64,000 nt of DNA from Pseudovirgaria hyperparasitica. Its lineage: Eukaryota. Shown one piece after another: positions 19,142 through 59,613 of this stretch (position 1 is the stretch's first letter; each line of letters begins with the position of its first letter). The position numbers and the translations under genes were made by a program. The notes under the pieces were generated by a model. That model was not told where the DNA came from. It did no database searches and was given only the letters and a program-made list of their open reading frames with translations. The stretch lies in assembly GCA_010093815.1 (NCBI GenBank), contig ML996587.1; one strand, 5' to 3'.

Positions 19142-20640
19142 ATGGCGGCCTTAGGCACCGACGTACCCCGGCTTCTACCGGGTATACCCCTAATACTAGT
19201 ACGGTAGAAACGGCTATATAGCGGCATATCCTAGGACGATTAAACCCCCGTCTAATAAACGACGAACAACTAAGGGCGTATAATACTATAGATAATAGAG
19301 ATGGAGGGGACCCCGCCCGGGGAGACCCTCCTAGACAAGATTAACTACTAGATAGTACGTGTAGAGAGGGAAGTTAAGAAGGGAGAAACGGCCCTCCTTA
19401 GTATCTTCTAGAACCTCGTCCGGAATATTAGGGAGCTTACCATAGGAGTAAAACAGACGCCGGAATTAGACCCGGAATCTAGACTAGATCGCATAGAGGC
19501 TAGCCTATAGAGGATCTAGGAGGGCCTTACCTAGGGAAAACGCCCTAGCACGTAGGCATAGGTCGCCGCACCTATAAACGGAACAGCTATATTAGCCAAA
19601 ACACTAAGGGCACCCATAGACGGGGCATATAGTATATAAGTCGCTATCTAGGATAAAGAAGTACTCGTATAAGTCTAGTAAGCGTCCCTAAAGGACGTTA
19701 TAAATAAGATTAACGAATAGAAAGGGATGTAGTTAAATATGGTGGCCGCCAAACTCACCCTAGAAGGTATAGTACTAACTACCACCACTAACACGGCCTA
19801 GTAGACTATCTCGCGCGACCCGAACGCGATTAATAACATCTTCCCTAGCGCGTCCGTCCGCGTAACCACGTACCTAATATAGATATATACTATCCCTATC
19901 CGAGGACACGTTATTAGAGAAGATAATATCGAGCGAATAGAGTAATCTAATGAACCGAAGTACCCTAGGATTAAGATCGCGAAGGCGTGGTAGAAGAACG
20001 TCTAAGGGATTAAGATAAAATCGAAAAAGCACTCTACTATAATAGTAGAGCTTAGAGACCCCGCTCTCGCCTATAGGATAACGTAGGAGGGCTTCCTAGC
20101 TAAAGAAGAGCTACTTACAGCGGAACTATAGGATAGGGCATAGGTAATAACGTAATGCTTTAACTATTAGGGATATAGGTATACTAGGTAGAGGTGCTCT
20201 TAGAAGACCGCCTATGGGTAGTATAAACAGGGCCATAATACTAAGGAATACCCTTATAAGACGCAGAGCGACAAGACGCGAGATAGGGACACCGCTAAGT
20301 ACTCTAACTACGACGGGAAACACCTATCCTAGTCGGTAACGTGCACGAAACGTAAGTAGATTATAGAATATATTAACGCGATGAAGACAAGAGGAGCGAG
20401 GTAGATACACCAAGCCATAAGGCCCTCGCTACCCTCGCCGCTATCCCTAACTTTACTTATAAATCTAGTAACCACCCCCCGAAGGGGAGAGGATAACGCG
20501 TAATAGCATACTATATAGAGAAAGATAGGCCGACCCCGGGGTATACTTAAAGCCGCCACCGCGCGAGGATAATCACGCCTTAGCGCTACTAACATATAGA
20601 CTCGAACTTTCTCTAGCACCTAATAAGGGTATAAGATATA
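19142..20640 (+). pseudogene. LINE ORF1 (gag-like, Zn knuckles), RIP-inactivated
   Basis: ATG 19142; CFNC.GYGH...C pattern after RIP at ~20156; GRPRG motif near the C-terminus. End approximate. Confidence 0.75.
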
Positions 20641-23600
20641 CTTATTATTATATAGGCGAACGTATAATATAAACGAGAAAACCAAGCGACGCTCCTAGAA
20701 GAAATAGGAGCCGTAATAATAGCCATCTAGGAACTATATAAATACTACTAAACTAATAAGCTAATAACACACCTAGGATACTACACCATCCACCCTACGG
20801 GCCCGGATAGGAGAGTTATATTTCATATATATAAGTCGATCCCGCTCTTAGAATAGTCTTATACCGAACGTAATAACCTCCGGATGACGCTATATCTCTA
20901 GATAAGTATAGAGCCTATCCACATCTATAATATCTATAATTAATAGCGATCGCTTACGCTAGATGATATACTAGAGGGCACCACGACGCCGGGATAACAT
21001 ATCCTCCTAGGCGACTTTAATCTCCACCATAGGTGGTGGGGAGGCCTAGCCGTCGCGAGAGAAGAACTTAGAGTAAGGGAACTACATACACGGTGCCACG
21101 ACTTCCTATACCTCCTTATACCCGTGGGGTAGATTACCTAGAGGAAACATAAATAGGACGAGGACGGGTCTACGCTCGACCTTACCCTCGCTACCGAGTA
21201 TATTAGCCATAGAGTATAGTACTACCGCCCGAGCCGGATATAGATGGACTCCGACCACGAATGTATAGAAACCGTAATAGACGTCTCCACTCTTAACGAA
21301 TAACGTAGGAAATGGCTATAGAAGGATACTAATTAGGATAAATACCTAGAGGACCTAGAATCGGCGATTCTAGACCCCTCTATAGTCGACGTATCTAACG
21401 GCCTAGCCATAGATAAGGCCGTGTAAGTCCTTCTTTAAGTATACTAAGCCACGAGAGATAAACACGTGCTATACTAAATATATAGACCCCTAGAAGCGAG
21501 GGGTATACCTTAAATACGAGAGTATAGAAGAGACGCCCGTAGACTATACATACGTATATACTATATCCGGACGACTAAGGCGTAGGAAGAGTAGAAGGAA
21601 GTAGTACAATATCGTGATAGGGCCCTCTATAATGAACGACGAAAGCAATGGCGTATAATTACCGATAAACACACACGGTAAGCCGTAGGGCTATAGCGTA
21701 TAGCAAAGTAGGCTAAGGGTGTAGACGCGCCGACACCGCCGCCACTAATACCTCCCCTAATATACTAAGAGAGGATATACTCTATAAGCCCGGAGAAGAC
21801 GGAGATCTTACGTAAAGTTATATTCCCTCTCCCGGAGCTAGTAGACCTATTAGATATTAATAACACTAAATACCTAGACGTAATTAATATCCCCTAAGAG
21901 GTTACCGAGGAGGATATGCTCGACGCTATTAAAGTACTCCTAAATAACAAGGCACCCGGACCGGATAGAATACCGAATAGGTGCCTTAAACGCACTATAC
22001 TAGCTACCCTACCGCTCATTAGTTATATATTTCAAGCATGTATTAAGAACGGATACCACCCCTAAAGCTTCCGGGCTACCTATACTATTATACTCCCGAA
22101 ACTAGGGAAGAACTCTAACTCCCCGAAAGGATAGAGGCTAATCGCCCTCCTCTCCTATCTTAGAAAGATACTAGAGGCCACGATCGCGAAGAAGATAAGC
22201 GCCGTAGTATAGGAATATAACCTCCTCCTAGTAAACCAGAAGGCGAAGGCTAGAAGCTCCCTAATTACCGCTATCTAATACATCCTCGAAGTCGTCTAGA
22301 CCGTATAGAAGTAGGGACGTGTAGTAACGCTACTCTCCCTTAACATGGCCGGCGTATTTAATAAAGTAAACTATATAAGACTTATCTATAACTTACGGAA
22401 GAGGCGTATACCCGCATGGATTACGCGGTTTATATAGTCCTTCCTCGCCGAAAGAGTTATCTAGATATATATCCCCGGATATCGAAGTAAGTATAAGAAG
22501 ACAGCTTACGGCATCCCATAAGGAAGTACTATCTCCCCGATCCTATTCCTCTTCTTTACTATAGACCTCCTCTAGGGAATATAATGTATAGAGGTAGTAG
22601 GGTACGTAGACGATATATACCTTCTAGCTATCGATAATAATACTAGCTAAATATATAGATAACTCGAACAAGACCACGGGAGATGCGTCTAATGGGCAAA
22701 GCGCTACGGAGTAAAGTTCGCCCCCGAAAAGTACTAACTCATGCACTTTATTAACCGCCGTAGGAAATGGGCTACTAGGGAAGGCAAGCGACGCCCTAGA
22801 ATAGACGCCTTTAATGAACCGCTAATACAAAGTATACGCGCACTCGGCGTCATGATTAATAATAAGCTTAAATAGGGACCATAGATAGCATACGCCGTTT
22901 CTAGGGCCCTCTAGGTAGAAGCCGCCATACGACGGATTATAGCCTCTATATAGGGAACCGCCCGGGATAAGGCACGCTAGCTATATATATCTATAGCACG
23001 ACCCGCCTTTACGTACGGACACGAGTACTAGTACACGGCCCTTATATAGACTAGGCGAATAAAGCTCGAATCCATATAGAACCGTATACTCCGTCTTATA
23101 TTAGGCGTATATAAAGCTACTAACACGGTGCTACTATAACGCGAGATAGACGTTATAAGTATATATAACTTCTACTAGATATAGAGGGTGGTATACTTCA
23201 CTAAATAATAAGCATAGAAACGTATAGGAAATATAGAATATACCTTCGCCGCGCTACGCGCGCGAGTTAGCGTATACTACTAAGTACTCTTATATATAGA
23301 CCGGACTCGACTACGGTATAAGTACCCGATAGAAATAGACTCAAACTAAGTAGCATAAGAGATTAAGGATAACCTAGATACCCTTCTAGACTAATAGAGC
23401 CTTCGAGAGCTCGGACGAAGTATACGGTCGTGGATCTAAGATAAGTAGAAAGAGATACTCCGGGCCTAGTGGGCCTCCTAGTAGAATAGGTACCTAGAGT
23501 AGATCCGAGGACCATAGAAGGAGCCGAGTAAATAGATATATAAAGGGCTTATAAAGGCCTAGGTATCTATACTCCTCTAAGCCTAAACGGGCGCTATAGA

Positions 23601-23924
23601 ACTTCTATACTACCTCTATAAGAGAGGCGTCCCTAATATATCTCTATAGTATAAGGCGTACGGCCGGAGAGGTATAATACGCTACTATCTTATAATATGC
23701 CCCGATCTTCACACGTAAAGGCAGAAGCTTATCTATACGATAAGAACCTCCGATATCGTACGATAGCTTAATAAGTACTCTAAGGACGTCGCCCGGTAGA
23801 TAATTATATACCTACTACTCCTCTAATTCTAGTGGACCCGGAAATATATACCGGAAGAGACCCGGTATACGCTAGTAGTAACCCGATATATACCGGAAGA
23901 ACCCCGGGAGAACCCCGATTATTA
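20638..23924 (+). pseudogene. LINE ORF2 (AP endonuclease + reverse transcriptase), RIP-inactivated
   Basis: I(Q)ANV, I(Q)E, ILLGDFNLHHRWWGG (21001), TLDLT, DSDH, NKAPGPD, IALLS.L.KILE, GIP(Q)GSTISPILF, GYVDD (~22601), VKFAPEKY. Confidence 0.85.
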
Positions 23925-25624
23925 GTTAAGGGNNNNNNNNNNNNNNNNNNNNNNNNNNNNNNNNNNNNNNNNNNNNNNNNNNNNNNNNNNNNNNNNNNNN
24001 NNNNNNNNNNNNNNNNNNNNNNNNNNNNNNNNNNNNNNNNNNNNNNNNNNNNCTAAGGGTAAAATAACGGTAATATAGGCTATAGGCTAATAGGCGTACC
24101 CTATAGCTATATACTTAAGACGAAATAGAGGTTTAACGAGATGTAGTTATAGACATAAGGAAGTTTTTCCCTATAGGGTTTCTTCTTATATAATGGCTTA
24201 GACTAGAGGAGGCATAGGCCTGTAGAGTACTACTCTACCTAGTTATATAATATTATTATTATTATTATTATACTATTTCTATCTACTATAGACTATAATA
24301 GATAAATTAGTAGTAGTAGTATATATATTAAGTAGTATAGCTAAATAGAAGAAGTATTTAATGAAGTTTTAATAGTAGTTAGCGAAGCTAATAAAGATAT
24401 ATATATCTTAAATAGATTTTAGTTTAGACTAGTCTATAATAGTAGTTACTCTATCTTTCTCTATAGTTATATCTTAGTTAGTAATATTAAAGCTAAGGAA
24501 ATTAATATAGTTCTAATAGAACTTATATTTAGATAGCGTAATATATAGTTTATACTTTTCTAGTCTATCTAGAACTATATATATATACTAGATATACTTC
24601 TTCTTATTATCTAATAAGATAAGAATATTATCTAGGTATATAATATATATTATATTAAGTAGACTAGCTAGTATATTATTAATATATACTTAGAAGATTT
24701 CTAGTATATTAGTTAGTCTAAAAGAGACTACTATATACTTAAAGTATCTATAATAGATTCTAAAAGCCGTTTTCTATTTATTACCCTTCTTAATATAAAT
24801 ATAGTAGTAAGTATTATATAGATTAAGCTTAGTAAAGATCTTTATATATTCTAGTCTATTAATAGACTATAAGATAAGAGGTAGTAGATAATAATTCTTT
24901 TATATAATGTTATTTAGACTATAGTAGTTAATATATAGATAGAGACTTCTATTCTTCTTCTTTATAAAGAGAATTAGAGCTCTAGCTAGAGATATACTAG
25001 ATCTAATCTATTCTTATATAAGGTTCTTTTTAATATATTCTTAAAGGACTTATAGTTCGGGTTCTAAAAGAAAGTAGATAGATCTATATAGAGGTTATTA
25101 GCTATCTTTAAGATTAATAGTAATATTAGTAGATTAATATTAGAGTAGTTTAGAAGAATTAGTTACTAATATAATATATTAGTATATTTTATACTAATAA
25201 GATAGGTTTTTATCTATTTTAATACTAAGCTTTTTATTTTAAGTAAGTAAGAGTATATAGATAGTAGAGATTATCTTTTTATAATTCTTCTAGAATTATT
25301 TATTATTAAAAAGTAATAATAGTATAGAAGGCCGTATCTATAGCTCTATATATATATGTTCCTAGCTTCATTATATAGTATATTTATATACTTAAGAAGA
25401 ATATTTCCCTACTTATTTTAAGATATATATACTCCCTATTACTAATATTCGACTATTTAGCTTTTCTTTATATTTATAGACTTCTATAGGTATTAATTAA
25501 TAGATATAGTTATTGAAGAATCGAAAAAAAAACCTCCTATACTCTAAGGGACTAAAATTAGTTAATTTAGGGCGATATAGTAATCTATAGATATTAATTA
25601 ATAGAGTATACTAAGTATAATAAC

Positions 25625-25667
<43 letters not shown>

Positions 25668-28600
25668 TATAATATATAATAGTACTAATATATAGAGATA
25701 CTATATACTTATACTTAAAAACTCTTTAGAGTAGTAAGTATAGACTACTACTAATAAACGCTAATATACTAACCCCCTTTATTAGTTAAGGGTAGTCCTT
25801 AACTAATAATTATAGCGGCCTTAGATACTAATATACCCTAGCTTCTACTAGGGATATCCCTATTACTAGTATAGTAGAAATAGCTATATAGTAGTATATT
25901 CTAGAATAACTAAACTACTATCTAGAAAATAAAGAATAACTAAGAGTATAAAATACTATAGATAACTAAGATAAAGGGGACTCTACTAGAGGACACTCTT
26001 ATAGATAAGATAGAATACTAGATAGTATATATAGAAAGGAAGATTAAGAAGAGAGAGACTACCCTTCTTAATATCTTTTAGAGTCTAGTCTAGAATATCT
26101 AAGAACTTACTATAGAAGTAAAATAAGTACTAGAGTTAAATCTAGAGTCTAGACTAGACTAGATTAAGGCTAGTCTATTAAAGATCTAGATAGACCTTAC
26201 CTAGAATAAACGCTCTAGTATATAGATATAAATCGCTATACTAATAGATAGTATAACTAAGATAGTCTAGATACTAAGAATATCTAAGAGAGAAGTATAT
26301 AGTATATAAGTTACTATCTAGAATAAGAAAGTACTTATATAAGTCTAGTAGATATCTCTAAAGAATATTATTAATAAAATTAATAAATAGAAAGAAATAT
26401 AGTTAAATATAGTTATAGCTAAACTTACCCTAGAAGATATAGTCCTTATAACTACTACTAATATAGTCTACTAGACTATCTTCTATAACCTAAATATAAT
26501 AAATAATATCTTCTCTAGTATATCTATCTATATAAATATATATCTAATATAGGTATATACTATCTCTATCTAGGGCTAAGTTATTAGAGATAATAATATT
26601 AAGTAAATAGAGAGATCTAACGACCGGAAATTTCCTAGAATTAAGATTATAAAGGTATAGTAGAAAAATATATAGGGGATTAAGATAAAATTAAAAAAAT
26701 ACTCTACTATAATAGTAGAGCTTAGAGACCCCGCCCTTATCTATAGAATTATATAAGAAGGCTTCTTAGCTAAAGGGGAATTACTTATAGTAGAACTATA
26801 GAACTAGATATAGATAATAATCTAATACTTTAACTATTAAGGGTATAGATATACTAGATAGAGATACTCTTAAAAGGCTATATATAGCTAGTATTATTAA
26901 AGCTATAGTATCTAGGAATACCCCTATAGGACCTAGAGTAATAGTATATAGAATAGAGAAACTACTAAGTACTCTAACTATAATAGAAAATACCTATTCT
27001 AGTTAGTAATATATATAAAATATAAATAAGTTACTAAGTATATTAATACTATAAAGGTAAGAGGAGTAAGGTAGATATACTAGGCTATAAGGCCTCTACT
27101 ATCTACTCTAACCTTATCTATAACTATATCTACTAATCTATAAGAGGGTAGAACTAATATATAATAGTATACTATATAGAGAAAGATCGGGCGATCCTAG
27201 AGTATTCTTAAGGTAGCTATTATATAGGGATAGTTACGCCTTAACGCTACTAGTATATAGACTTAAGTATTCTCTAGTATCTAATAAGAAGCTAAGATAT
27301 ACTTATTATTATATAGATGAATGTATAATATAAATAAGAAAACTAGGCTATACTTCTAGAAGAGATAGATACTATAATAATAGCTATCTAGAAGCTATAT
27401 AAATACTACTAAACTAATAAACTAATAATATACCTAGAATGCTATACTATCTACCCCCTAGGCCTAGATAGAAGAGTTCTATTCTATATATATAAATTAA
27501 TCCCGCTCTTAGAATAGTTCTATATAGACTAAGATAACCTCTAGATAATACTATATCTCTAGATAAATATAGGGTCCCTCTATATCTATAATATCTATAA
27601 CTAGAAAGAATTACTTATACTAGACGCTATACTAGAGAGTATTATAGTACTAGAATAATATATCCTTCTAGGCGACTTTAATCTCTACTATAGATAGTAG
27701 AGAGACCTAATAGTTATTAGGGAAGAGCTTAGAGCGAGAGAACTATATATAAGATACTAAGACCTTCTATATCTTCTTACGCTAGTTAGATAGATTATAT
27801 AGAGGAAATATAAATAGAATAAGAAGAGATCTATACTTAACCTTACCCTTACTACGGAATATATAAGCTATAGAGTATAATACTACCACCCTAGTAAGAT
27901 ATAGATAAACTCTAACTATAAGTATATAGAGACTATAATAGATATATCTATATCTAATAAATAAAGAGAGAGATAGCTATAGAAAGATACTAACTAGGAG
28001 AAGTATAGGGAGGACCTAGAACTAGTAATTCTATACCCCTCTATAGTCGATATATCTAATAGTCTAGCTATAGATAGAGCCGTATAAGTTCTTCTTTAAG
28101 TCTTCTAAGACTTAAGAGATAAATATATACTATACTAAATATATAAGTCTCTAGATATAAGGGGTATACCTTAAATATATAAAAGTAGATAGAAAGTCTA
28201 GAGACTATATATATATATATATATACTATATCTAGATAGCTAAGGTATAGAAGAAATAGAAAGAGGTAATCTAATCTTATAATAGGGCCCTCTATAATAA
28301 ATAATATAAATACTAGTATATATTTACTAATAAGTATATATAATAGACTATAGAGCTATAGTATATAGTAAAGTAGGCTAAGAGCGCGGATGTACCGATA
28401 CTACTACTACTAATACCTCCCCTAATATACTAGAGGAGGATATATATTATAAGCTCTAAAAAGATAGAGATCCTCTAAAAGGTTATATTTCCCCCTCTAG
28501 AGCTAGTAGACCTACTAGATATTAATAATACTATATATCTAGATATAGTTAATATCCCTATAGAGATTATAGAAGAGAATATACTTAATACTATTAAAGT

Positions 28601-30476
28601 ACTCCCGAATAATAAAGCGCTTAGACTAGATAGAATACTAAATAGATGCCTTAAATATACTATATAGATAACTCTACTACTTATTAGTCTTATCTTCTAG
28701 GTATATACTAAGAATAGATACTATCTCTAAAGTTTCTAGACTATCTATACTATTATACTTCTAAAGGTAGAGAAGAATTCTAACTCTCTAAAAGAATAGA
28801 GACTAATTACTCTTCTCTTCTATCTTAGTAAGATACTTAAAACTATAATTACGAAGAAGATAAGTACTATAGTATAAGAATATAATCTTCTTCTAGTAAA
28901 CTAGAAGATAAAGACTAGAAGCTCTCTAATTACTACTATCTAATATATTCTTAAAGTTATTTAGACTATATAGAAGTAGAGATATATAGTAATATTACTC
29001 TCTCTTAATATAGCTAGTATATTTAATAAGGTAAACTATATAAGACTTATCTATAATCTATAGAAGAAACGTTTACCTAAATAGATTATAAAGTTTATAT
29101 AGTTCTTTCTTACTAAGAGAATTATCTAGATATATATCTCTAGATATTAAAGTAAATATAAGAAGATAATATATAGTATTCTATAAGAAAGTACTATCTC
29201 TCTAATTCTCTTTCTTTTCTTTACTATAGACCTTCTATAAGAGATATAATATATAGAGATAGTAGGATACGCTAATAATATATATCTCCTAGCTATTAAT
29301 AATAATACTAGTTTAATATATAAATACCTTAAATAAGACTATAAGAGATATATCTAGTAGATAAAGCGCTATAGAGTAAAGTTCGCCCCTAAGAAATACT
29401 AACTTATTTACTTTATTAACTACTATAGAAGATAGACTACTAAGGAAAGAGAGTAATATTCTAGAATAGAGGCTTTTGCCGAACTACTAATATATAGTAT
29501 ATATATACTTAGTATTATAATTAATAATAAATTTAAATAGAGTCTATAGATTATATATACTATATCTAGGGCCCTTAAGATAGAAGCTACTATATACTAG
29601 ATTACGGCCTCTATATAGGGAACCACCTAGAATAAGACGCGCTAGCTATACGTCTCTATAGTATAACCCGCCTTTATATATAGATATAAGTACTAGTATA
29701 TAGCCCTTATATAGACTAGGTAAATAAAGCTTAAGTCTATATAGAACCGTATACTCTATCTTATATCTAGTATATATAAAGCTACTAATATAGTACTACT
29801 ATAATATAAGATAAATATAATAAGTATATAAGACTTCTACTAGATATAAAGGGTAATATACTTTACTAAATAATAAGTATAGAAACACGGGAGATATATA
29901 GGATATACTTTTACCGTACTATATATATAAGTTAGTATCTACTATTAAGTATTACTATATATAGACTAAACCTAGATATAATATAGATATCTAATAGAGA
30001 TAGACTTAAATTAGATTATATAGAAGATAGAGAATAATCTAGACGCCTCTCTAGACTAGTAGAACTCTTAAGAACTTATATAGACTATAAAGTTATAGAC
30101 CTAGAATAAATAGAGAAAGACTCTTTAGACCTAATAGATATCTTAATAGAATAGATATCTAGAGTAGATTTAAGAACTATAGAAGAAACTAAGTAAATAG
30201 ATATATAAGGGGCTTATAAAAGCCTAGATATCTATTCTCCTCTAAATCTAAATAGAAGCTATAGAACTTCTATACTATCTATACTAGAGGGGCGTCCCTA
30301 ATATATCTCTATAGTATAAAGTATATAGCTAAAGAGGTATAATATAATACTACCTTATAATATATATAGACCTCTATATATAAAGATAAATACTTATCTA
30401 TGTAATAAAGACCTCTAATATTATATACTAGCTTAATAAGTACCCTAAGAAGATCGCCTAGTAGATACTTATATAG

Positions 30477-30704
30477 TGTTAGAACTTAGCCTTAGGCAGG
30501 ACTCGACCTGCACGTACCTTAGCTAACAGGGTCAGGAGGTGACGTGAAGGGCGGTGAACAGTCACGTGCTAGACAGATCGGCGTCCCTTTGTATATATAC
30601 TCTCGGATTCCTACCGAAAGGGTTCGGTAGTAATTCGTTCTATGATAGAATACACCCTATTATTCCATCTGGCTACACTACTATCCAATAACCCTATTCT
30701 TACA
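30477..30704 (+). repeat. 5' LTR
   Basis: TGTTAG...CTTACA; TATA-like tract ~30592-30599; 10 differences from the 3' LTR by manual count, all transitions. Confidence 0.96.
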
Positions 30705-30706
30705 TT

Positions 30707-30718
30707 CGAATTACTACC
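30707..30718 (+). promoter_or_regulatory. Self-priming-type primer-binding site
   Basis: CGAATTACTACC is the exact reverse complement of GGTAGTAATTCG (30626-30637) within the LTR. Confidence 0.75.
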
Positions 30719-30738
30719 CATATAGTACTATAGTTAAG

Positions 30739-32052
30739 ATGGTCTAACTAGAACCAAGAAGGTCGACACGATCCACTGTAGGGACAAGTAACACTGCATT
30801 AAACAACAGGGATCCTCCATAATCGGTATTAAATCCGGCCGTTCTTAATAGAGAAGTGGAGATGTCCGACCGAATCACGGAACTTTCTAATAAGGAAATG
30901 GTGGATATACTAAGCGACTTCCCACGATAGGAAGCTGGACAACGAGTCGTGGTAGAGCTACACGAGGAATCGCAACCATCAATCGCCGAACTATAGGAGC
31001 ACATCGCTAATCAAGCCCGAGAGATATAAATCCTTAAAGAATAGACTAAACGTGCGAAACTCCTCGTAAAACGACGAGAACTTAACGAGTCTCTTAAAAG
31101 ACTACGCGGAACGATAGTAGGTGGACGACTTCCTACACCAATTCAGGCGGAATTAGTTCACCCACCATTAGAGTTACGACAATCCACCGTATACCCGGCC
31201 GCTTCGTTACCGATTTACCCTACTCCTTCCTTAGGTATACCGAAACCCAAAGATCCGACTACATTTATAGGGAAGAACCAAAAGGAGTGGAAAGATTAGA
31301 AGAGAGACTGCGAGAAGTACTTCCTCGACAACCCTATGCTCTTTTCTACCGAAGCACAACGCATTTCATTTGGAGAACGTTACTTAGGTTCATAATCCCG
31401 CGATCAATGGGATAGACAGAAGGAAGTCAAGCCACTATCGGCGACAACCTAGGAACATTTAGCCATATTTATGCTAAATACCCTCGGAACTAACGGAGAA
31501 CGCGAAAGAAAGGCACTATCTAAGTTAAGAAGCGTGGCATAACGACCGAACCAGACACCTACTTAACTACTATAATACCTATAAAACCTCTAGGATAATA
31601 TCCCTACACTATAGGAAAATATTCGCATATTCTAGTTTCGCGAAGTACTACTCCCGTTAATCCGCGAAAGATTAGGAATAGTATTATTAAGTTTTAACTA
31701 TCTACACGAATTAGAGGAGAAAGCTAATGAACACTACCGCATCCTTAAGGAACGCGGCTCTCTAGGTAAAACCGACGAACCCTACACGGGTTAGAAACGA
31801 GGTCGATCGAATACGTTCGATCAAGAGTAACCTCACCGCGATTAACGCTAGAAGAGCGTAAATCGGGGTAGAAACGCGTTAAGAGGACACCGAAATAATC
31901 GAGGTGGTGGTTCCCAACACGGAAAAGGATAAGGCACAGGCTTAAATGCAACGCCTATCGCAAAACAGTAGGACTATAGCGCACTTTATTACTATAAGTG
32001 TAGAGAAAAGGGATATATTTCGCCTAACTGCAAGAATCCGAAAAAAGAATAG
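30739..32052 (+). pseudogene. Chromovirus gag (RIP stops)
   Basis: ATG 30739 in frame with (C)YKC.EKG(H)ISPNC knuckle at 31990-32031 and TAG at 32050. Confidence 0.8.
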
Positions 32053-35000
32053 GCTAGTACGCGAGACCTAACCGCGTTCTTAGCTAAATTATATATACTT
32101 AGGAGGAGCCGTAGCGCCTTCCGGCGAGTAAAGACCTAATATTACTAAAAGTATCGTTACCCATAGTAAATGGTAATAAAACTATATAGGCCCTCGTGGA
32201 CACTAGTATAGAAGATAACTATATTTCGTCGATTCTCGCTAAGGAGTGTAGATTATCGTACGATCTCGGCAAAGTTGGCCGAACCATCGTAGTTAATGGA
32301 CATAAAGTCAGAACTTTAGGTAAAACTATAATGAATTACGAAGTTCATGACTCAAAGATAATAAAATAGTAGATGTCTAATGAATTCATCGTGGCTAATA
32401 TTAGCTAATAGAATATGATTCTAGGGATGCCTTAGCTTAAACGCCTAAACCCAATCCTCGATTTTTAGAAGGAGACATTAACGTTCCGTCGATATCGCGG
32501 TAAATTATACTAGTAAGTCGTAACCATTAGTAAGGAGGCATGGAACCTCGCCGTGCGGACCCGATCATCGCTAGTCTACCTTATATCCCTATCAATCGTC
32601 GACGAAGACGAAGAGGATAGCAATAATCGGGGTAAAGACACGCTACCCGACGTATATTCGCAGTATACGGATATGTTTTCGGCAGGGGACGCGTTACTTC
32701 TCCCCGACCATAGGCCGCATAAGCTAAAGATCGAGCTCAAAGAGGGAGTAGACGTCCCTTATAGTCTACTTTACCTACTTTCGAGACTAGAACTCGAAGT
32801 TCTTCGTAAATATATCAAAGAATATCTCGGAAGAGGCTAGATACGTCGTAGTACGTTATTAGCCGGCGCACCTATTCTCTTCGTGAAGAAGAAAGACGGA
32901 AGTTTACGTCTATGCGTTAACTATCGAGCACTAAATACGGTGACTAAGAAGAATCGTCACCTATTGCCGTTAGTTAGTAAATCTTTAGACTAATTAACGA
33001 AGGTAAAGTACTTTACGAAGCTAGATTTGCGAGATATATATTACCGGCTTCGAATCCGTCGCGGAGATGAGTGGAAAACCGCATTTCGGACTAGATATGG
33101 TTATTTTAAGTACACTATTATACCGTTTGGGCTAATAAATGCGCCAGGAGCGTTCTAAGGATACATTAATACTATACTTATAGGATTACTTAATGTGATC
33201 TACGTAGTTTACCTCGATGATATACTGATTTACTCCGATAGCATGCAGGATCACGAAGAACACGTGAAATCGGTGCTAAATCGTTTAAGACAGCATAAAC
33301 TCTACGCAAAGTTGTCCAAATGTGAGTTTCACTAATAAGAAGTTGGGTTTCTTAGCTTTATTATGACATACGGCGGCCTTAAAATGGAGCTAGAGCGTGT
33401 CAAGACCATTATGGAATGGCCAGAACCTACTACTATACGTCAAATCAGGACGTTCATAGGTTTCGTGAACTATTATCGCAAATTCATTATAGGTTTCTCA
33501 CGAATTACGGCGCCGCTTAATAAACTCATAGAGAATGGCGGTAAAATCCCTATAGGTGGGCGAGCATAGCGCAAAGCTAAGTCGGTCGAGATATAGTTAA
33601 CGCCGGAAGCGCGAGATGCGTTCCGATCATTAAAGAATTACTTTATAACTACGCCGATTCTTAGGTATTTCGATCCCGAGAAGCACATTCGGGTCGAAAC
33701 AGACGCATCTAGATTCGTAATTACTAGAATCATTAGTTAACCGTATAAAGATGCGAAAGACAAGGTGTAATGGCACCCGGTCGCCTTCTTTTCCCGTAAA
33801 ATGGCGGATATAGAGACGCGTTATGACACGCACGACCAGGAACTACTCGTAATTATCGAGAGTTTCAAGCAATGGCGATATTATTTAGAAGGCTCCGCAT
33901 ATTAGATTAAATTATTATCGGATCACGCAAATCTACGTTACTTCATGTCGACTAAGGTCCTTAATCGCCGATAAGTACGTTGGGCTAAGTGGATATTAAT
34001 ATTTAACTTTAAAATCTTACACAAAGCTAGAAGAGAGAATAAAGTAGATCCTCTATCACGGCGTGAAGATTACGAGAAATCGTCGTAGAATGACGCAGAT
34101 AGTCGGTGTAATTCAGACTATGCTATACTATAGACACTAAAAGACTAGTTATCTAATAGAGTGCCGGAAGCCAGGACACTTTCGGCGACTCTCCGCGGGA
34201 ATTAGAGCGGGCATTAAGTAATCCAAACCAACGTTCAAGAAACAGAGTAAATCCTCGAAGACTTGATTAAATCTACCTAGAATTCCGATGCATTAGCAAA
34301 GAAAGTCATGAGTATAAAGGGAATGGCTATAGAACCGCCATGGTTATTAAGGTGGGAACGACGATCGGACGCAATCTACTTCCAAGGCCGACTCTACGTG
34401 CCGGAAGGCGGCTTACGAATCGATATTTTAAGGGAATAGCACGATTACGCGTTAGTAGGGCACTTCGGCGTTATAAGGACGGTCGATTTAATCCGAAGGA
34501 CGTACGACTGGCCGGGTCTTTATAAATATATAAAAGACTACGTAAAAACGTATGACGTTTGCCAGCATACGAAAGTACATAGACACTTGCCATATAGCGA
34601 ATTAAGGCCATTACCTATGCTAAAGGAAGCATGGAAGGAATTGTCGATGGATTTCATTATAGATCTACCCCTAAGTAAGTGTCTTAGGCATGTTTATAAT
34701 AGTTTACTCGTAGTTTTAGACAGATTTACGAAGATATTACACTATATCCCTATAAGGAAGACGATCTAAGCACCGGATCTTGCAGATATACTACTTCGTG
34801 ACGTAGTTCGGCTCCACGGTACGCCGAACGGCATAGTTTCGGACAGAGGTCCGTAGATAACGTCTAAGTTTTAGAAGGATTTCTACTATACGCTAGGAAT
34901 TAAGCGGAAACTTAGTACCGTATTCCACCCATAAACAGATAGGCAGACAGAGCGGTAGAATTAGATAGTTAAGGCGTATTTACGCGCATATTACAACTAT

Positions 35001-35810
35001 AAGTAAGATAACTAGGTAAGGTTAGTCTATGTTGCGGAATTCGTGTATAATAACAGCCGACATGCGTTAACCCACGTAAGTCCGTTCGAAGTAAACTTCG
35101 GTCGAAACCATAAAGCGTAGTTCATGGGAACTCAGTGTAAATTAGAGTAGCCTAACGTTAAGGCGACGGAGATTACGATAGAACTATTCCAAACGCAAAG
35201 AAGCGTTATAAAGTTATTATAAGATGCTATAGATTATAGTAAATCGCACCATAATAAGGGTAGAAAGCCCATGATCTTTAATATTAGAGACAAAGTTTTA
35301 CTAAATAGCAAAAATATTCGTAGTATCAGGCCGAAGAAGAAGCTTAACTACACGATGATAGGTCCATTTAAGGTTACTCGTGTAATCAATGACCAGGCGT
35401 ATAAGTTGAAACTCCCTCCCACGTTAAAGATACATAATATGTTCCACATCACGCTTCTCGAGCCATTCCATGCCTCATCGTTACCGGATCGTTCCGAATA
35501 GACGTTGCATAAAGTAGTTACGTAAGGAGGTGCGGATATCTACGAAGTTAAGTAGATACTAGGCTAATAACGTGCCGAAGATGGCACGTGGCTATATAAA
35601 ATTTATTAGAAAGGGTACAATCCTAACGAAGATACTTGGGAACCCGTAATACATATTAGTAAAGCAGCGATGTCAGCGTATAAGTAGCGATTAGCAAAGG
35701 AAGCCGCGGAATCGTAGAGAATTATGCCAAAGTACGGCGATTCGACGTTTTTTAGTATAGTTCGGCGCCGAGGACGGCCGCCTAAAAGGAAGAAGGTGAA
35801 AGAGACATAG
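32040..35810 (+). pseudogene. Chromovirus pol (protease, RT, RNase H, integrase, chromodomain), RIP stops
   Basis: ALVDT (32190), [31 protein letters not shown] (~33208), VETDAS, HHCC remnant, LSMDFI, IGPFKV, KGYNPNEDTWEP; protease is in the -1 frame relative to gag. Confidence 0.92.
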
Positions 35811-36165
35811 ATCTTCAAAACATTCTAAGGAATTAAGGAACTTCCTTAGAAAGTTCGAACTTAGAACTTCAAAAAATTAACTAAAAAAGAGACTTAGAAA
35901 AATGATTCACTGAGAGAAATGGACATCGAAAATCGGTGCCGATCGGTATAGATCGGTATAGATCACTAAAGAGATTAAAGAAGTTATTATTAAAGAAAGA
36001 TGAAATTAAGGAAGCTGAAAGAAAATACGAAGATCTATGCAGATCTATGTAAACTCGCACTAATCTATCTAGAAGAAGCAAGATCGCTTCAAAATTGAAA
36101 CCGAAAAAACCAAAACGCCAGACAAAAGAGACATGTTAGCACCGATTGGTGTAGATCTAAACCGA

Positions 36166-37147
36166 TCAAGTCGGAGCAGGAGTAGAAGTACCAATCACCG
36201 CGATGGTTACATCTAATTCCTTCCGCTGGTTCTTGTTCAGCATAGTGTGGAGCTTTATAACATAAGTCTCTAGCCTTTCGTTCCGACGCTATAAATTCTA
36301 TATAGCGCGCCTCACAGCTATAAACTCCTCTATAGAAACCTACGGAGCGGCGGAACCCGGGATAGAGAGGGACGGACCGGCGCGGGCACGCTGAGAATTA
36401 TATAAATCAGCGAAAAGATTTAACGATCGGTATAGAACCACATACCGTTAGTGCAGAAACTTCTAGATTAGAGCCATCTTCCCTAAATTTACGGCTCTTT
36501 AGCACGCGCGAGGAAGGAACCTTAGCCTTTTTACTAGAACCTTTTCTAGGAATTTTAATATCGCCGGTATATAGAAAGAAGTCCGAAGTGGCAGAGATTT
36601 TGGCACTATTATAGAGATTAATATATATTAGTAAGAATCTATGACGATTTGAGAAAAACGATATTACCTAGTAATCGCGGTAATGATAGCTATAGTAGAT
36701 TCCGATAAACCCTTACGGATCTCATTAGAATCGTACTCCTAGGCGTAACCCTTACCTTAGGTATATAGCTCGTAGAAAGCCTTCTCTAAGGCGTTGCGAT
36801 CGGTAGTACCACGCTCCTTATCGGTAGGGGTTACTAGAGGCCTAGTAGTAATCTATACCGATATAAGTAAATCTACGTAAAGTTCTTCAAACTTACTTAA
36901 ATACCTATAAGCAATAATGCTTCTTGGTTATGCAAGTGCCGTATATCATAGATTTAGCACTACCGTGAGCAATGTACGACGGAAAGCGACAACCATAATA
37001 ATATATAGCCAGATTATTAGAGCCCGGCCTAGGTCGGGGCAGATCGATAGCTTTCGACATGTCGGTGACGCATATAAGACAGGGATTATTCGAAGGCGCC
37101 TGTTTCCGTACCGATTACTTTAGAGCGTCGAGATTTCGGGAAACTAT
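36166..37147 (-). pseudogene. Antisense four-exon accessory gene inside the chromovirus (Zn2Cys6-like N-terminus, coiled-coil-like C-terminus), RIP-damaged
   Basis: Three short GT-AG introns (36904-36853 or 36896-36842; 36667-36606; 36445-36391) restore one ~270-codon frame whose internal stops are all TAG/TAA, ending at TGA 36168-36166. Confidence 0.7.
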
Positions 37148-37615
37148 ATTACGATTATTATTAATTTATGCGGATTATTGCGAATTATGTTATTACTAGC
37201 TAAGGACGGCACGAAAATTAGTAAATTGCGTAAATCGCACTAAATAGCAGCAAATCTACATAAATCTATGTCTGTAAGGATCGGGTGATATACCTAATAA
37301 TCTAAAAAACTCTATAAAGAGTTGAGAAGTTTTTTAAAGAAAGGAATATTTCTAAGAAAAGATTTTAATATAGGTAGTACCCGGGCTTACCTAATCACAT
37401 CACGTGATACGCTAGGCCTAATTAGGCAATCTCACCTATGTAAGAAGTTAAGATGGACAAAATCTAGTTTGTTAGGAAAATGCTTGTGTGAATCTCAGAT
37501 CGGCGAATATCGGCAAGTATCTAAGATGAAGCGTGGAGAACGACTAAGGTCTTACGAGACTCAGGATAGAGATATAGGGATAGGTGACGATCTAGGTCGC
37601 TAAGGGTAGCTTCCC

Positions 37616-37631
37616 AGAGGGAAGGGATAAT
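37616..37631 (+). promoter_or_regulatory. Polypurine tract
   Basis: AGAGGGAAGGGATAAT directly before the 3' LTR. Confidence 0.85.
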
Positions 37632-37859
37632 TGTTAGGACTTAGCCTTAGGCAGGACTCGACCTACACGTACCTTAGCTAATAGGGTTAGGAGGTGACGT
37701 GAAGGGCGGTAAACAGTCACGTGCTAGACAGATCGGCGTCCCTTTATATATATACTCTCGGATTCCTACCGAAAGGGTTTGGTAGTAATTCGTTCTGTGA
37801 TAGAATACACCCCATTGTTCCATCTGGCTACACTACTATCCAATAACCCTATTCTTACA
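37632..37859 (+). repeat. 3' LTR
   Basis: Direct repeat of 30477-30704. Confidence 0.96.
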
Positions 37860-38228
37860 TATAGTTTCTACTCCCTTAGTACTAGTAGACCTAGATATAT
37901 ATACTAGAAGAAGCTAGGTATATACTAGACGAGCCCTAGTATACGCCGGAAGAACCCTAGAAGAACCCTAATTATTAGTTAAGGGTAGCCCTTAACTAAT
38001 AACCTATGTACTCTATATATACTATCTAAGGGTAAAATAATAGTACTATAGAATATAGGTCTATAGATATTTCTAATAGCTATATACTTAAAATAACATA
38101 AAGACTTAATAAGATATAGTTATAGAGAGAAGGAAGTTTTTCCTTTTATAAAGGTTTCTTCTTATATAATAGTCTAGACTAGAGAAGGTATATATCTATA
38201 GAGTAAACTACTCTATCTAGTTATATAA

Positions 38229-38267
<39 letters not shown>

Positions 38268-40731: not shown

Positions 40732-40736
<5 letters not shown>
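39880..40736 (+). mobile_element. RIPed repeat, probably a retrotransposon gag-like ORF; inverted partial copy at ~25320-25524 + 38262-38460
   Basis: F...NI..FL.KY.D...NY-like motif ~40105-40165; 40320-40650 matches the reverse complement of the DNA flanking LINE copy 3. Confidence 0.5.
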
Positions 40737-40765
<29 letters not shown>

Positions 40766-43478
40766 TTAGTAAACTAGGTAGAGTACCACTCTATAGGCGT
40801 ATACCTCCTCTAGTCTAAGCTACTATATAAGAAGAAACCTATAAATAGGAAAAACTCCCTTATATCTATAACTACGCTCTGTCTATCCTCTCGTTCTTTA
40901 TATATATATAGCCCTAGGGGCTACCTATGGGCCTATAGCCTATATTATAATAGTTTACCCTTAGGCAGCACGTGTAGATACGGAGATTATTAGTTAAGGG
41001 CTACCCTTAACTAATAATCGCGGTTCTCCCGGGGTTCTTCCGACGTATACTAGGGTTCTTCTAGTATATATCGGGCTTCTTCCGGTATATATACGCGGGT
41101 CTACTAGAACTAGGGGAGAGAAAGGTATATAAGCATCTATCGGGCAACGTCCTTAGGGTACTTATTAAGCTATCGCGTGATATTAGAGGTCCTCGTTATA
41201 CGGACGAGGGCTTATCTTAGGGTATAGAGGCTAGAGTACGTCGTAAGGTAGTGGCGTATTATACCTCTCTAGCCATAGTCCTCGTACTAGGAAGATATAT
41301 CTAGGACGCCTCTCTAGTAGAGGTAATATAGGAGATCTATAGCGCCTATTCGGGCTTAGAGGAGTATAGATGCTTAGGCCTTCGTTAGCCCTTTATATAT
41401 CTATTTACTCGGTTCCTTCTAAGGCCCTCGGATCTATTCTAGATACCTATCCTATTAGGAGGCCTACTAGGCTTTAAGTACCTCCCTCTATTTATCCTAG
41501 ATCTATAACCGTATAACGCGGCTAAGCTCCTTAGGGCTCTATTAGCTCGGGACGGTATCTAGGTTATTTCGAACCTTCTACGCGGTCTAGCTCGAGTCCG
41601 TCTCTATATAGTATTTATATTATACTCGAGTTTATTCTATAGTAGAGAGGGCCTAGTAATACGCGCGGATACGTGTGCGTAGTATAGTAAAGGTATATAC
41701 CCTATCTCCTCTACGTTCTTATACTTATTATTTAGTAAAGTATATAAGTCTCTATATCTAGTAGAAGTCCTATATACTCATTATGTTTATCTCGCGTTAG
41801 AGGAGCATTATATTAGTAGCTTTATATACACCGGAGATAAGGCGGAGTATACGGTTTTATATGGACTTAAGCTTTACCCGCTAAGCTTATATAAGGGCCG
41901 TGTACTAGTACTCGTATCTATATATAAAGGCTAGGCGTGCTAGGGAGACGTATAGCTATCTCGCCTTATCCTAGGCTATTCCCTACGTAGATACCGTAAT
42001 CCGGCGTATAGCGGTTTCTACCTAGAGGGCTCTAGAGACGGCGTGTGCCACCTATAGTCCCTATTTTAGCTTATTATCGATTATAACGCCGAGTGCGCGT
42101 ATGCTCTATGCTGGTAGTTCTATAAAGGCGTTGATTTAGGGGCGACGTACCCCCTCTCTAGTAGTCTATCCTCTATAGTAGTTAATAAAGTATATAAGCT
42201 AGTATTTTTTAGGTGCGAATTTTACTCCGTGGCGCTTTACCCACTAGACGTATTTCTTATAGTCTTGTTCGAGTCTCTAGTTCGAAGTCGGATAACTTCT
42301 ATAGGTTCGACGTGCCCTATACCATTAGGCCCTACTCCTGTTTTCGCCTTATCTTATCCCCTTTAGGCTTATATCTCCGGCTCTACTAGAAGAGGGGCAC
42401 GACGCCTTATCTAGCTAGGAAACTACGAGGTTTACTCCTTAAACTTATATTACTAGCGTGCGTGTCTAGCGACACGTTCTATCTCTTTATAAATCGATAC
42501 GCGCATCTATTCTCTCGGGCTATATAGTAGTCTCCCTAGCTAGGACGTAATCCCGCCTACTTCTAGATATATTAAAGGTTAGAGCCTATTAAAGGGGTAA
42601 GGTCCTTAGAGCTAGTAGTTACTACTATATACTACGCCCCGCCTTTAAGTATAGCTACTATCTAGTTTTACGTTACCTATAAGGATCTCTCTATAATAGG
42701 CTAACCGTGTCTTATAGGCGAGTATCCTTTAAATCCTATATATATATACTCACGTAACGCGCCTAGGCGACTTAAGCATCCTCTATCTACTAACCCGACT
42801 TATTTCTACTACTTTTTAATAGGTCTCTATAGCCGCCTCTTATCTATGTCCGTGTACTATTATCTATATATACTAGCGCCCTACCTTCTACGGTAGACTA
42901 TAATATCTCTTATATACGGGAGCCGCTCTATCTATCCTAGACCTAAGCGGTATCCCGTATCGAGCGAAAGGTCTTAATAGAGTCGCGCTACTAGTGGTCG
43001 CGCTAGGCGTCTTAATAAACGTAGTTTAATACTATAGGAGAGTTAGCCTTAATAAGTTTATCTATAGTAGTTTATAGTTACCCTCGACGTGATTTCTCGC
43101 TAATTCTTATATACCTAGAGCCATTTAAGCCTCGAGGTGTCCTATCGCGCTACTAGGACTTCCGCTTTCTCTACCCACATAGTAAGGTAGATTTAGGCCT
43201 GCTTTCAATATAGTAGTAGCGCGTTAGATGGTTTTCTTATCCCGGTATTCTCGTGGACTTCTCTTAACGCGTTAATTAAGAATAGGATAGAAGTATATAC
43301 TATCCTAGCTGGTTTATTATAGTATGGTCCCTATAGAGTAACGCGTCGCGAAAACTCTATAACCACCTACCTAGCGACGATGAGGTCGCTATTAACGCCG
43401 CTCCGAACCTCTTGCTACCTCCGAAGAGGTATTGCCTAGCTACGACGACGTAGACGCGGTTCGTAAGACTTCGCAGCT
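40737..43478 (-). mobile_element. Chimeric LINE insertion: LINE 3' 1.55 kb (40737-~42280) joined to 1.2 kb of unrelated sequence
   Basis: (TAT)n tail at 40733-40765, ORF2 C-terminal homology up to ~42280, 16-bp TSD aggaaactatctataa at 40721-40736 and 43479-43494. Confidence 0.82.
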
Positions 43479-51702: not shown

Positions 51703-54322
51703 GAATAAATATCTTATTTCTCTTTACGTATAGATATATATAGATATATAATTATAAGTAAATAGTAGTTTAGATTTATACTACTATACTAACTAGTCTC
51801 TTAGAAGCTAATTAACTAACTACTTTACTTACTTCTATACTACTATATCTCTATAGAATTAAAGTATATGTCTATTACTAGTATATTAGATATAGCTATC
51901 TCTACTATAGCTATATCTTCTTTTTCTAGGTCTAAGGCTTATATTCTTATACTTTTAATTACCTTATCTAATATAGTAAGTCTAGTCTTAACCTCTAAAT
52001 AGTCTAAAATTAAAGTATATATATACTATAGGCTAATATTATCTATAGTAATAATATCTTATACTTATCTACGGCTACGTCTTCTTACGTAAGTATTAGT
52101 CTACTAATACTATAAAACTAATAACTATTAGGTCTTATTCTTTATAGATCTATAAAGCTAATACTAGTAGAATATATAGAGAATCCGACTTAGTTAATCT
52201 ATATACCTTATTTAATTTAGATGTACTTAGGCCGGCTAGTAAATATACTAATATTTTCACTTATATATATAGATATAGTACCTATATATATTAGTAAATT
52301 ATATTACTAGTAGGTAGTATAAATACTTACTAAGTATAGAAATATTAAGCTTACTAGTAGAGTATATATAAGTATAATTTTCTCTAGATAGTTAGCGGAT
52401 ATTTATCGTGTGTATCTAGTACTTTTATTATAAATAATATTATTAATAAAGTTATAGATCTAGTTTACCTTTAAAGCGTATTTATTAGCTAGTAATACTA
52501 TCTTCTTTTATATAGTCTTATCTAGCTATAGAAGTATTTCATATATAGAATTAGTAATTATCTTACTTAGTATACTATTATTACTATCCCTCTAACATAT
52601 AAGCGTAATATTAATTTACTTATCTTCTACCTTTTTATTAGTAAGGTATATAAGTAGTATATATATAGTAGCTAGCCTAGCCTAATAGTAGTATACGTTA
52701 AGCCTAGACCTAGTACTCTCTTTTAATTTACTCTAGGCGGTAGATTATATCTATAAGTTCCGCGACGTTCCGTTAGACTATAGATTATTAAACTATTTAC
52801 TTCTATTCTTATATAACTATATAATTATCTTCTCTAGTTCTATAGCTAGAATAGATATAAACTCTACTACTAGCTTTAATATTATAGATAGATATATCTC
52901 TCTATTAAACTATTTAGTTAGTAGTCTCTATTATAGAATAAATAGTAAATACTAATTAGCTACTATATATAGTATATACTTACCTTCTATAGTTTCTAAT
53001 ACCCTATAAACTATTACGGCTATTATATCCGCTAGCTTACCTTTTATTAAACTAAGAAGTTTATTTAACTATATTATAATAATTTTCCTTATAGTTTTAT
53101 TCTATAGACTCTTAAATACCCTTTTAGTATTATTATTATTAATATAGTTAGATAACTTATCTAGAGTATCTACCTTAATAGCTACTAGAATATCTACTAG
53201 ACTATTTAAGAGAGGCGTTATACTAATCTATATACTAAATATAAGGGTATTATATATTATATATTTATACTATTTTATATTAGGGTTCTTTACGGAATAG
53301 AACTCGTCTATAATTAATATACTAAGGAATACTACTTTATAAGTTTAAGTGTTTTTAGTACTAAATTTTTTTACTCTCTTTACTCTTATAACTATATATC
53401 TCTTAAAAGATTTAAGATATTCGAGTTCTATACTCTAGATAGTACTATAGATTATATAGTTCTTTATAAATTATAATAGAAATTTAGTAGTAGCGGTCCT
53501 ATTAATAGAAATTAACTATACTCTAATAATATACTTCTTATTAGTCTTAAATTTAGTAGTATTACTAATATTAACGCTATATTTCTATTTAGAGTATAGG
53601 CATCTCTTAGCTAAGTATTATTAGTCTATATATAAGAATTATCGGATACTAGAGGCATTAGTAAGGGTTTTTAAGTATACTAGCCGTACTATTATCTTTA
53701 TCGGGTTCCGTTTATTAATTTAATTAGTAAATATACTATCTATATTATTATATATCTATTTAAAGTGCTATAGCTAATATACTATTAGAAGGGACATTAG
53801 ATAGTATAGTATAAATAGTCCTTAAAGGCGGGGTATATAGATAAAATTATTAGTCTAGCTATATGGATATTTAATCGGATATAGAGATTATATTAGATAC
53901 TTTCTATCTATATCTAAGTCTTAAGTTAGTTATAGATAATTTCCTAGATTAAATTTCTATATTATTATATAGAAAGTTCTAATAAAACGTAAGGTAGATA
54001 AATATTATAAGTATAATTATCTTCTCTAGCCCTAGACTATCTACTAAGATCTAGTACTTCTATAGACCCGCCTACTACTTAAATATAGTAACTACTATAA
54101 GTAACTAGCCGGTCTATAGTCTATATAATCTACTTATACTAAAGGCTAGATATAGAGTAGGTATATAGCTAAACTCCTTTATTAGATTATCTAGTATAAG
54201 TCTAAATATACTTATAGTAAGTAACTATATCTCTTCCGTATAATAAGAGATAGCTTAGACTACTTTATTAGAGTTATTAATAGTAAATATTCTATAGATA
54301 TATTACCTATACTATTATCTTA

Positions 54323-59584: not shown

Positions 59585-59613
<29 letters not shown>
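54323..59613 (+). mobile_element. Full-length LINE, copy 4 (same subfamily as copy 1)
   Basis: Colinear with copy 1 apart from transitions; (TAT)n tail; possible low-complexity TSD tatagatatatta (54293/59612), uncertain. Confidence 0.92.

Follow-up and report, generated by a model that had tools for sequence, protein, structure and literature searches.

The window analyzed here was a 64,000-nt stretch of DNA from Pseudovirgaria hyperparasitica (GenBank assembly GCA_010093815.1, contig ML996587.1), a fungal, AT-rich repeat landscape altered by repeat-induced point mutation (RIP), with a GC content of 18–30% across most of its length. It contains a complete, RIP-mutated long terminal repeat (LTR) retrotransposon of the Ty3/Gypsy type, which occupies positions 30477–37859 on the plus strand. 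Between the pol stop codon of this element, which ends at 35810, and the end of its polypurine tract at 37631 lies a spacer, and within this spacer a candidate gene spans 37147–36166 on the minus strand. The candidate had been proposed in a sequence-only reading of the window, in which all strings, coordinates and lengths proved correct, including the pol stop at 35810, the 1.8-kb gap behind it (1,821 nt) and the minus-strand reading from 37147. Taken together, the results described below indicate that 37147–36166 is probably a real, though RIP-killed, spliced antisense accessory gene of the Gypsy family.

The element is flanked by two copies of the target-site duplication TATAG (30472–30476 and, directly after the 3′ LTR, 37860–37864) and is bounded by a 5′ LTR of 228 bp (30477–30704) and a 3′ LTR (37632–37859), both on the plus strand and of the form TG..CA, which share 96% identity. 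It was inserted into a copy of a 5.3-kb repeat resembling a long interspersed nuclear element (LINE), and since the two halves of that repeat (ending at 30475 and resuming at 37859) are contiguous in paralogous copies, the ends of the element are fixed independently. The gag-pol frame (30744–35810, plus strand) covers protease, reverse transcriptase, RNase H, integrase, an SH3 domain and a chromodomain-like tail. The pol frame matched the Pfam families RVT_1 (3e-30), RT_RNaseH (6e-25), Integrase_H2C2 (2e-16) and SH3_Tf2-1 (2e-17), as well as rve at 3e-7, yet below that family's own cut-off. Reverse transcriptase, RNase H and integrase stand in the Ty3/Gypsy order, as they do in chromoviruses, and the Chromo family (PF00385) was matched at residues 1600–1645 of the RIP-damaged frame with E = 0.0024 and 18.2 bits against a cut-off of 25.1. 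This frame is broken by 77 in-frame stops, 76 of which are TAA or TAG. From the pol stop codon (35808–35810), the spacer extends over 35811–37631 up to and including the polypurine tract AGAGGGAAGGGATAA (37616–37631, plus strand), which adjoins the 3′ LTR at 37632, and it appears to be present throughout a high-copy family. The intensity of RIP within the spacer is patchy, with a CA+TG/AC+GT index of 0.17 in 36668–36904 and of 0.9–1.0 in 36905–37300 and 35811–36091, while pol has an index of 0.56. At the other end of the element, the nucleotides right after the 5′ LTR (30705–30725, TTCGAATTACTACC..) are unlike the usual primer-binding site, which is complementary to a transfer RNA and starts with TGG.

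The antisense candidate consists of four exons on the minus strand. Exon 1 (37147–36905, frame 1) is preceded by an AT-rich stretch, starts with ATA where an ATG is needed, is rich in Cys, Tyr and His codons and contains two TAA or TAG stops. It is followed by intron 1 (36904–36853, 52 nt, GTATTT..TATAG, GC 0.27, score 6.1), for which a 55-nt alternative with a higher score of 10.4 exists at 36896–36842 (GTAAGT..CTAG); the length of intron 1 modulo 3 is 1, which matches the required phase shift. Exon 2 (36852–36668, frame 2) has two TAA or TAG stops, and intron 2 (36667–36606, 62 nt, GTAATA..TACTAAT..ATAG, GC 0.23, score 8.8) is the sole candidate of the right length class at its gap, with a weak 5′ site. 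Exon 3 (36605–36446, frame 1) is free of stops and encodes a basic patch, intron 3 (36445–36391, 55 nt, GTATGT..GCTGAT..CAG) scores 13.2, and exon 4 (36390–36166, frame 2) carries three TAG stops, a heptad-like helix and the terminal TGA. The three introns (52 or 55, 62 and 55 nt) and the spliced frame of 270–271 codons were thus present as originally proposed, the spliced length being 813 nt or 271 codons, or 810 nt or 270 codons with the alternative intron 1.

The spliced frame contains seven internal stops, all TAA or TAG, no internal TGA, and a terminal TGA at 36168–36166. The claim that all internal stops are of the RIP type therefore holds to the letter (seven of seven), although it is uninformative, since TAA and TAG make up 110 of 128 stop triplets on this strand of the spacer region anyway. 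The ratio of in-frame TAA and TAG to surviving CAA, CAG and TGG codons is 7:2 in the candidate and 76:39 in pol, so that the stops of the candidate are what RIP would make of a few Gln and Trp codons. With seven stops and no ATG in the candidate and 77 stops in pol, the copy studied here is dead.

RIP produces transitions only, and the purine/pyrimidine (R/Y) sequence of the spacer is therefore unaffected by it. Period-3 composition resembling that of pol was found only within 36111–37010 (χ2 of 14.3, 7.6 and 10.7) and was strongest in the exon 2 segment (χ2 = 25.0, p = 3e-4), whereas the spacer flanks and the LTRs showed no such signal (χ2 of 1.0–4.5). As a measure of phase we used RNY, in which the frequency of R at the first codon position is added to that of Y at the third. 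RNY peaked in the frame given by the sequence-only reading for all four exons, and the combined value of 1.237 compared with 1.085 ± 0.039 in shuffles in which the frame with the fewest stops was taken (reached in 0 of 2,000). Exon 2 had an RNY of 1.39 (0/2,000), exon 3 of 1.245 (24/2,000), with phase margins for frame 1 of up to 0.56, and exon 4 of 1.211 (63/2,000), in comparison with 0.961 for the frame-1 open reading frame (ORF) that overlaps it. In exon 1, the R/Y phase was that of frame 1 across 37169–36873.

In sliding windows, the R/Y phase ran through frames 1, 2, 1 and 2 in turn, with the switches at the three proposed introns. A search for the best path of phases, blind to stops and splice sites, returned the segments 37090–36926 (frame 1), 36852–36670 (frame 2), 36622–36467 (frame 1) and 36420–36082 (frame 2), which are nearly identical to the proposed exons. 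The score of this path was 48.5, compared with about 30.5 ± 5.5 in shuffled sequences, and it was reached by 1 of 150, 2 of 150 and 0 of 500 shuffles, and by 0 of 300 with another drift setting. Long ORFs were in excess as well: the spacer holds five ORFs of at least 80 codons where shuffles yield 0.68–0.81, and this number was reached in 0 of 1,000 shuffles (whole sequence and 200-nt blocks) and in 0 of 400 shuffles of 30- to 200-nt blocks. When the positions of the stops were kept and their frames were randomized, the minus strand had three ORFs of this length where 0.21 were expected (3/2,000), and the plus strand had two where 0.22 were expected (30/2,000).

Since RNY is strand-symmetric, the strand was called from splice signals, from G at codon position 2 and from the loss of sense introns from genomic RNA. 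At the three gaps between phase segments, the best minus-strand GT..AG introns whose length class fits the phase shift scored 10.4, 8.8 and 13.2, and their sum of 32.3 compared with 20.0 ± 6.2 in local shuffles, 10 of 1,000 of which reached it. The plus-strand scores at the same gaps were 4.4, 8.2 and 6.9, which is the level of the null. No other intron candidate in the spacer, whatever its strand, scored as high as intron 3, whose score was reached by 7 of 1,000 local shuffles. The frequency of G at codon position 2 was 0.15–0.19 when the minus strand was read, near the 0.19 of pol, and 0.27–0.32 when the plus strand was read. The four-exon, three-intron antisense layout is thus supported by the RIP-invariant R/Y phase and by the splice-signal scores.

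A number of results weigh against reading the spacer as a spliced antisense gene, and these came from the statistics, from database searches and from relatives of the element. Exon 1, the weakest of the four, had no significant phase when taken alone (RNY reached in 418 of 2,000 shuffles). At 1.24, the RNY of the candidate is higher than in pol and in two of the window's host ORFs (1.09–1.11), and may therefore reflect a different codon bias or a noncoding periodicity. The 5′ splice sites of introns 1 and 2 are weak, the splice matrices were consensus values and not trained ones, and a stop-free frame-1 ORF of 102 codons (36397–36092) overlaps exon 4. In a search for the best open path, in which a dynamic programme allowing up to three GT..AG introns was compared with dinucleotide shuffles, the spliced-path score was not significant (reached by 24 of 150 and 9 of 150 shuffles), nor was it with the splice matrices added (9 of 120). 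These stop-penalty tests are underpowered because stops are read through. In a RIP-proof map of stops restricted to TGA, the spans were compatible with chance. A codon model trained on pol gave the path a value of −0.053, which is nearer to the off-frame mean (−0.076) than to the in-frame value (0.005), with a model that separates frames poorly even on pol itself. The significant tests were designed only after the initial ones had failed, and their P values therefore need some discount.

The database searches gave no homologue of the product. The frame of exons 1 and 3 was compared by HMMER with 1.84 billion protein representatives and found no homologue; the single match (E = 1.6e-4) lay in the out-of-frame middle of the query, hit a repeat protein that looks bacterial and is irrelevant. 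Word-index searches of exons 2 and 4 and of frame 1 over 36604–36092 found nothing, and six-frame Pfam searches of 35811–37631 gave nothing convincing at E ≤ 1. Rfam yielded no match, the best match in a PDB sequence search was an unrelated SSL1 segment at E = 0.03, and the Atlas recognition score of exon 1 was 1514, while 2300 is reached by most real families. Since the pol of the same copy is readily recognized, RIP damage alone is no explanation for the lack of homologues. The product, if real, is by its sequence an orphan protein.

The relatives of the element were no more favourable. A heavily RIPed relative at 8330–12827 (minus strand), visible only by transition-blind BLAST in the R/Y alphabet, agrees with the element at 90% for the LTR and 77% for pol, and its 2.9-kb spacer could not be aligned with the 1.8-kb spacer studied here (alignment score 534; null, 532 ± 10). 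The 2.9 kb could represent a nested insertion or a spacer of another kind. Among metagenome loci with related integrases, the best 80 of 193 relatives (27–52% identity) were compared with the spacer by tblastx, and all eight matches had E ≥ 1.2. In five of the six relatives with paired LTRs, the 3′ LTR follows the last position of the pol match by only 74–570 bp, and in the sixth (L028) by about 2.5 kb. No ATG-started ORF of at least 80 codons was present in the gap between pol and the 3′ LTR in these six relatives.

The copies of the family itself were assessed in contigs from two DNA runs of one sample (X1 and X2), with at least 80% identity over the element, where depth does not equal copy number; all four runs that were compared consist of contigs. 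In X1 and X2, 18,526 and 6,688 contigs, respectively, mapped over the element, all 30 of 30 bins were covered, and the spacer was covered like pol. The spacer is therefore not a one-off capture, a possibility that the sequence-only reading had named as fatal to its proposal. The differences recorded in X1 comprised 203 C>T and 177 G>A changes against 38 T>C and 41 A>G, and no insertions or deletions were listed inside the element. The copies appear to have arisen recently from a single master and to have undergone RIP afterwards, and the presence of the spacer in all of them is therefore no proof of selection. The other two runs (X3 and X4) touched the spacer at two short pieces only. One contig each in X1 and X2 joins 36008 to 36521 and skips 512 nt, so that some copies may have a deletion of exon 4 and part of exon 3. 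A third copy of the same Gypsy family begins within the window at 63701–64000, where an LTR and leader with 87–89% identity run up to the window edge.

The features of the translated product were real, but the domain names attached to them were not borne out. The consensus of the Zn2Cys6 domain is C-x2-C-x6-C-x5-12-C-x2-C-x6-8-C, while the spacing in exon 1 is C-x2-C-x26-C-x15-Y-x2-C-x6-C, with five Cys and a Tyr in the position of a sixth. The Cys pattern thus has the spacing originally quoted for it, except that one of its positions reads Tyr. The candidate is Cys-rich, and its pattern agrees with the consensus in the latter half, C-x2-C-x6-C, if this Tyr is a RIP-mutated Cys, but the first half is C-x2-C-x26-C and not C-x2-C-x6-C. 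The label "Zn2Cys6-like" was consequently dropped: the spacing between the second and third Cys is 26 instead of 6, the next gap of 15 lies outside the range of 5–12, one Cys must be postulated, and there was no match to Zn_clus (PF00172) at E ≤ 1 for exon 1 or in six frames. Identity as a bZIP protein was rejected as well, with no bZIP profile in Pfam matched by exon 3 or exon 4. For the overlapping ORF at 36397–36092, the Atlas suggested a PHD finger with a score of 0.88 and 141 shared features, which is below its reliability marks; this ORF had no Pfam match and stands in the wrong frame by R/Y phase (RNY 0.961). What remains is a Cys/His/Tyr-rich start, a basic patch and a heptad-like helix, of which the basic patch and the heptad-like tail had been described correctly.

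Antisense genes at this position are known from other elements. According to passages in three papers (PMC7264820, PMC8365987, PMC4227169), Boty-like elements of Botrytis cinerea and Sclerotinia sclerotiorum carry an antisense gene, brtn, between pol and the 3′ LTR, for which these passages cite Zhao et al. (2011, Virology 417:248) as the source. A transcript match at 63% identity is mentioned for brtn in Monilinia (PMC7264820, PMC8365987, PMC4227169, PMC5987419), and the Boty gag-pol is described in one passage with a CHROMO domain (PMC4227169). The suggestion that such a gene had not been described in fungal chromoviruses therefore fails as far as the kind of gene is concerned, since brtn of Boty precedes it (PMC7264820, PMC8365987, PMC4227169). 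Both genes reside in a fungal LTR element as an extra gene antisense to gag-pol between pol and the 3′ LTR, and no function is given for brtn in these passages, nor is one known for the candidate. This likeness is one of position and orientation, and relatedness is neither shown nor excluded. The candidate has three introns and was RIP-mutated in every copy seen. An antisense accessory gene is thus already known as a kind, and the candidate is apparently a new and unrelated one. Its frames matched no named protein (exons 1 and 3 by HMMER, exons 2 and 4 by word index), in databases from which BRTN itself may be absent. Among the results listed in full-text literature searches, there was no fungal antisense retrotransposon gene beyond brtn.

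In plants such genes are well documented, and passages of two papers (PMC7264820, PMC11963269) describe antisense ORFs between pol and the 3′ LTR in the Ty3/Gypsy elements Grande, RIRE2, Retand (with a TRP28 domain) and PvRetro13. These ORFs share position and orientation with the candidate and likewise lie in a long region between pol and the 3′ LTR; as described there, they are found in most copies of a family, and a role in nuclear or DNA-binding regulation has been proposed for them. The spacers given for the plant elements measure 2.9–6.6 kb, whereas the spacer studied here measures 1.8 kb and is without tandem-repeat arrays. The plant elements named are largely of non-chromovirus lineages (Tat/Retand), and the candidate shares no Pfam domain with their antisense ORFs in six frames. 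HBZ of human T-cell leukaemia virus type 1 (HTLV-1) is an antisense-encoded retroviral protein that serves as a comparator in a passage of PMC11963269. Like HBZ, the candidate lies close to the 3′ LTR, reads in the direction opposite to gag-pol and would have a basic region and a helical, zipper-like tail. HBZ is a bZIP protein, whereas the candidate has no bZIP match in Pfam, and since host kingdom and element family also differ, the analogy is a functional one only.

If the gene is real, its four exons, separated by three introns of about 52–62 nt, would provide some 270 codons antisense between pol and the polypurine tract of this high-copy fungal Ty3/Gypsy element, whose pol has a chromodomain-like tail. 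It would be transcribed from integrated DNA, possibly from an internal promoter within the AT-rich sequence that precedes the putative start at 37147. Its introns run antisense to the genomic RNA; splicing of that RNA therefore leaves them in place, and every new insertion inherits them. Judging from its translated sequence, the Cys/His/Tyr-rich N-terminus of the product may bind metal, the Lys/Arg patch may act as a nuclear localization signal, and the C-terminus may form an amphipathic helix. By analogy with Grande, Retand and HBZ, the product might be a nuclear regulator that binds nucleic acid or chromatin and controls the element's own expression. In its strongest form, which we consider unlikely, the proposal would be that a high-copy fungal chromovirus encodes its own intron-bearing antisense orphan regulator (metal-binding, basic and zipper-like), unrelated to brtn and made only from integrated copies, which controls transcription of the element or blunts silencing by the host. 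Such a regulator would have its equivalents in retroviral HBZ and in the antisense proteins of Grande and Retand from plants, and antisense accessory genes would then have arisen repeatedly in fungal Gypsy elements.

Three other explanations have to be weighed against a real spliced antisense gene. The spacer may be noncoding, a long 3′ untranslated or cis-acting region whose ORFs, periodicity and intron look-alikes come from composition or from a degenerate trinucleotide-like sequence. The lack of any homologue or Pfam family, the chance level of the stop-based path tests and the similar openness of both strands (30 stops in the best plus frame and 31 in the best minus frame per 606 codons) are in keeping with this. 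The RNY of the candidate exceeds that of the bona fide genes of the window, and exon 2 is rich in RYY codons (ACT, ACC, ATT). GC troughs do not serve as marks of introns either, since those like introns 1 and 2 are equally common in pol, where they recur about every 500 nt. However, four segments are each phased, and where the phase switches, GT..AG introns of a fitting length class are present on one strand only; the LTRs and the spacer flanks carry no period-3 signal; and Tandem Repeats Finder detected no repeat in 36100–37100, with only five tiny 10-nt repeats overall. A noncoding spacer is therefore rather unlikely. That the plus strand codes instead, for a third sense ORF after pol in the frames whose codons coincide with those of the candidate, such as that in plus frame 2 at 36911–37603 (231 codons, five stops), is highly improbable. 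The strand symmetry of RNY, the mere 30 stops per 606 codons in plus frame 2, the excess of long ORFs on the plus strand (30/2,000) and a 100-codon plus-strand ORF (37301–37600) that ends just before the polypurine tract all speak for it. But this explanation needs sense introns, for which the best plus-strand candidates (4.4, 8.2 and 6.9) are at the null level and which splicing would remove from the genomic RNA; the ORF at 37301–37600 has no period-3 signal (χ2 = 4.5, RNY 0.99); reading the plus strand puts G at 0.27–0.32 in codon position 2; and a word-index search of plus frame 2 over 36911–37603 found nothing.

It is also conceivable, though quite unlikely, that the founder of the family captured a host gene or gene fragment, introns included, in antisense orientation, and that this passenger plays no role in the element. 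The composition of the candidate would suit such an origin, with the share of A at codon position 3 (A3) at 0.17 and that of Y (Y3) at 0.61, while A3 is 0.31 in pol and 0.23–0.24 in the host ORFs. The spacer is missing from most relatives and the related copy in the window has a different one, and the copies, which appear to stem from one recent master and differ almost only by RIP transitions, give no proof of selection. On the other hand, exons 1 and 3 have no relative among the 1.84 billion protein representatives, and the unit gives the impression of being whole and not a fragment: an AT-rich sequence lies upstream, and a possible start is followed by four exons and a terminal TGA. Functional accessory ORFs are also thought to arise by capture, so that a passive capture differs from an antisense accessory gene of the element mainly in present function.

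The accessory genes of LTR retrotransposons are poorly understood, and brtn of Boty was the sole fungal example found in print. A second, apparently unrelated and multiply spliced antisense gene in another fungal Gypsy family would make such genes a recurrent phenomenon and not a curiosity, and, if real, would add a new candidate to the regulators through which elements and hosts interact. The practical value of the approach is that the period-3 phase of purines and pyrimidines retrieves exon frames from RIP-wrecked DNA that are missed by ORF finders and homology searches.

Elsewhere in the window, the 5.3-kb LINE-like retroelement is present in at least five copies (13149–18486, 18826–23932, 25527–30475 continued at 37859–38258, 54308–59615, and 40736–42274 on the minus strand) with a mutual identity of 71–91%, and its only Pfam match was RVT_1 at 1.4e-9. 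Two of these copies contain a minus-strand ORF of 162 codons (13986–14474 and 55111–55599) without a Pfam match, the pair being identical at 136 of 163 aligned positions, with the end stop counted. A gene island at 4626–7553 was spared by RIP, with a GC content of about 0.5 and a CA+TG/AC+GT index of 1.15. Besides a 302-codon plus-strand ORF without a Pfam match, this island holds a minus-strand ORF of 442 codons, whose NLE domain and WD40 repeats give it the look of a ribosome-biogenesis protein of the Notchless/Rsa4 type.

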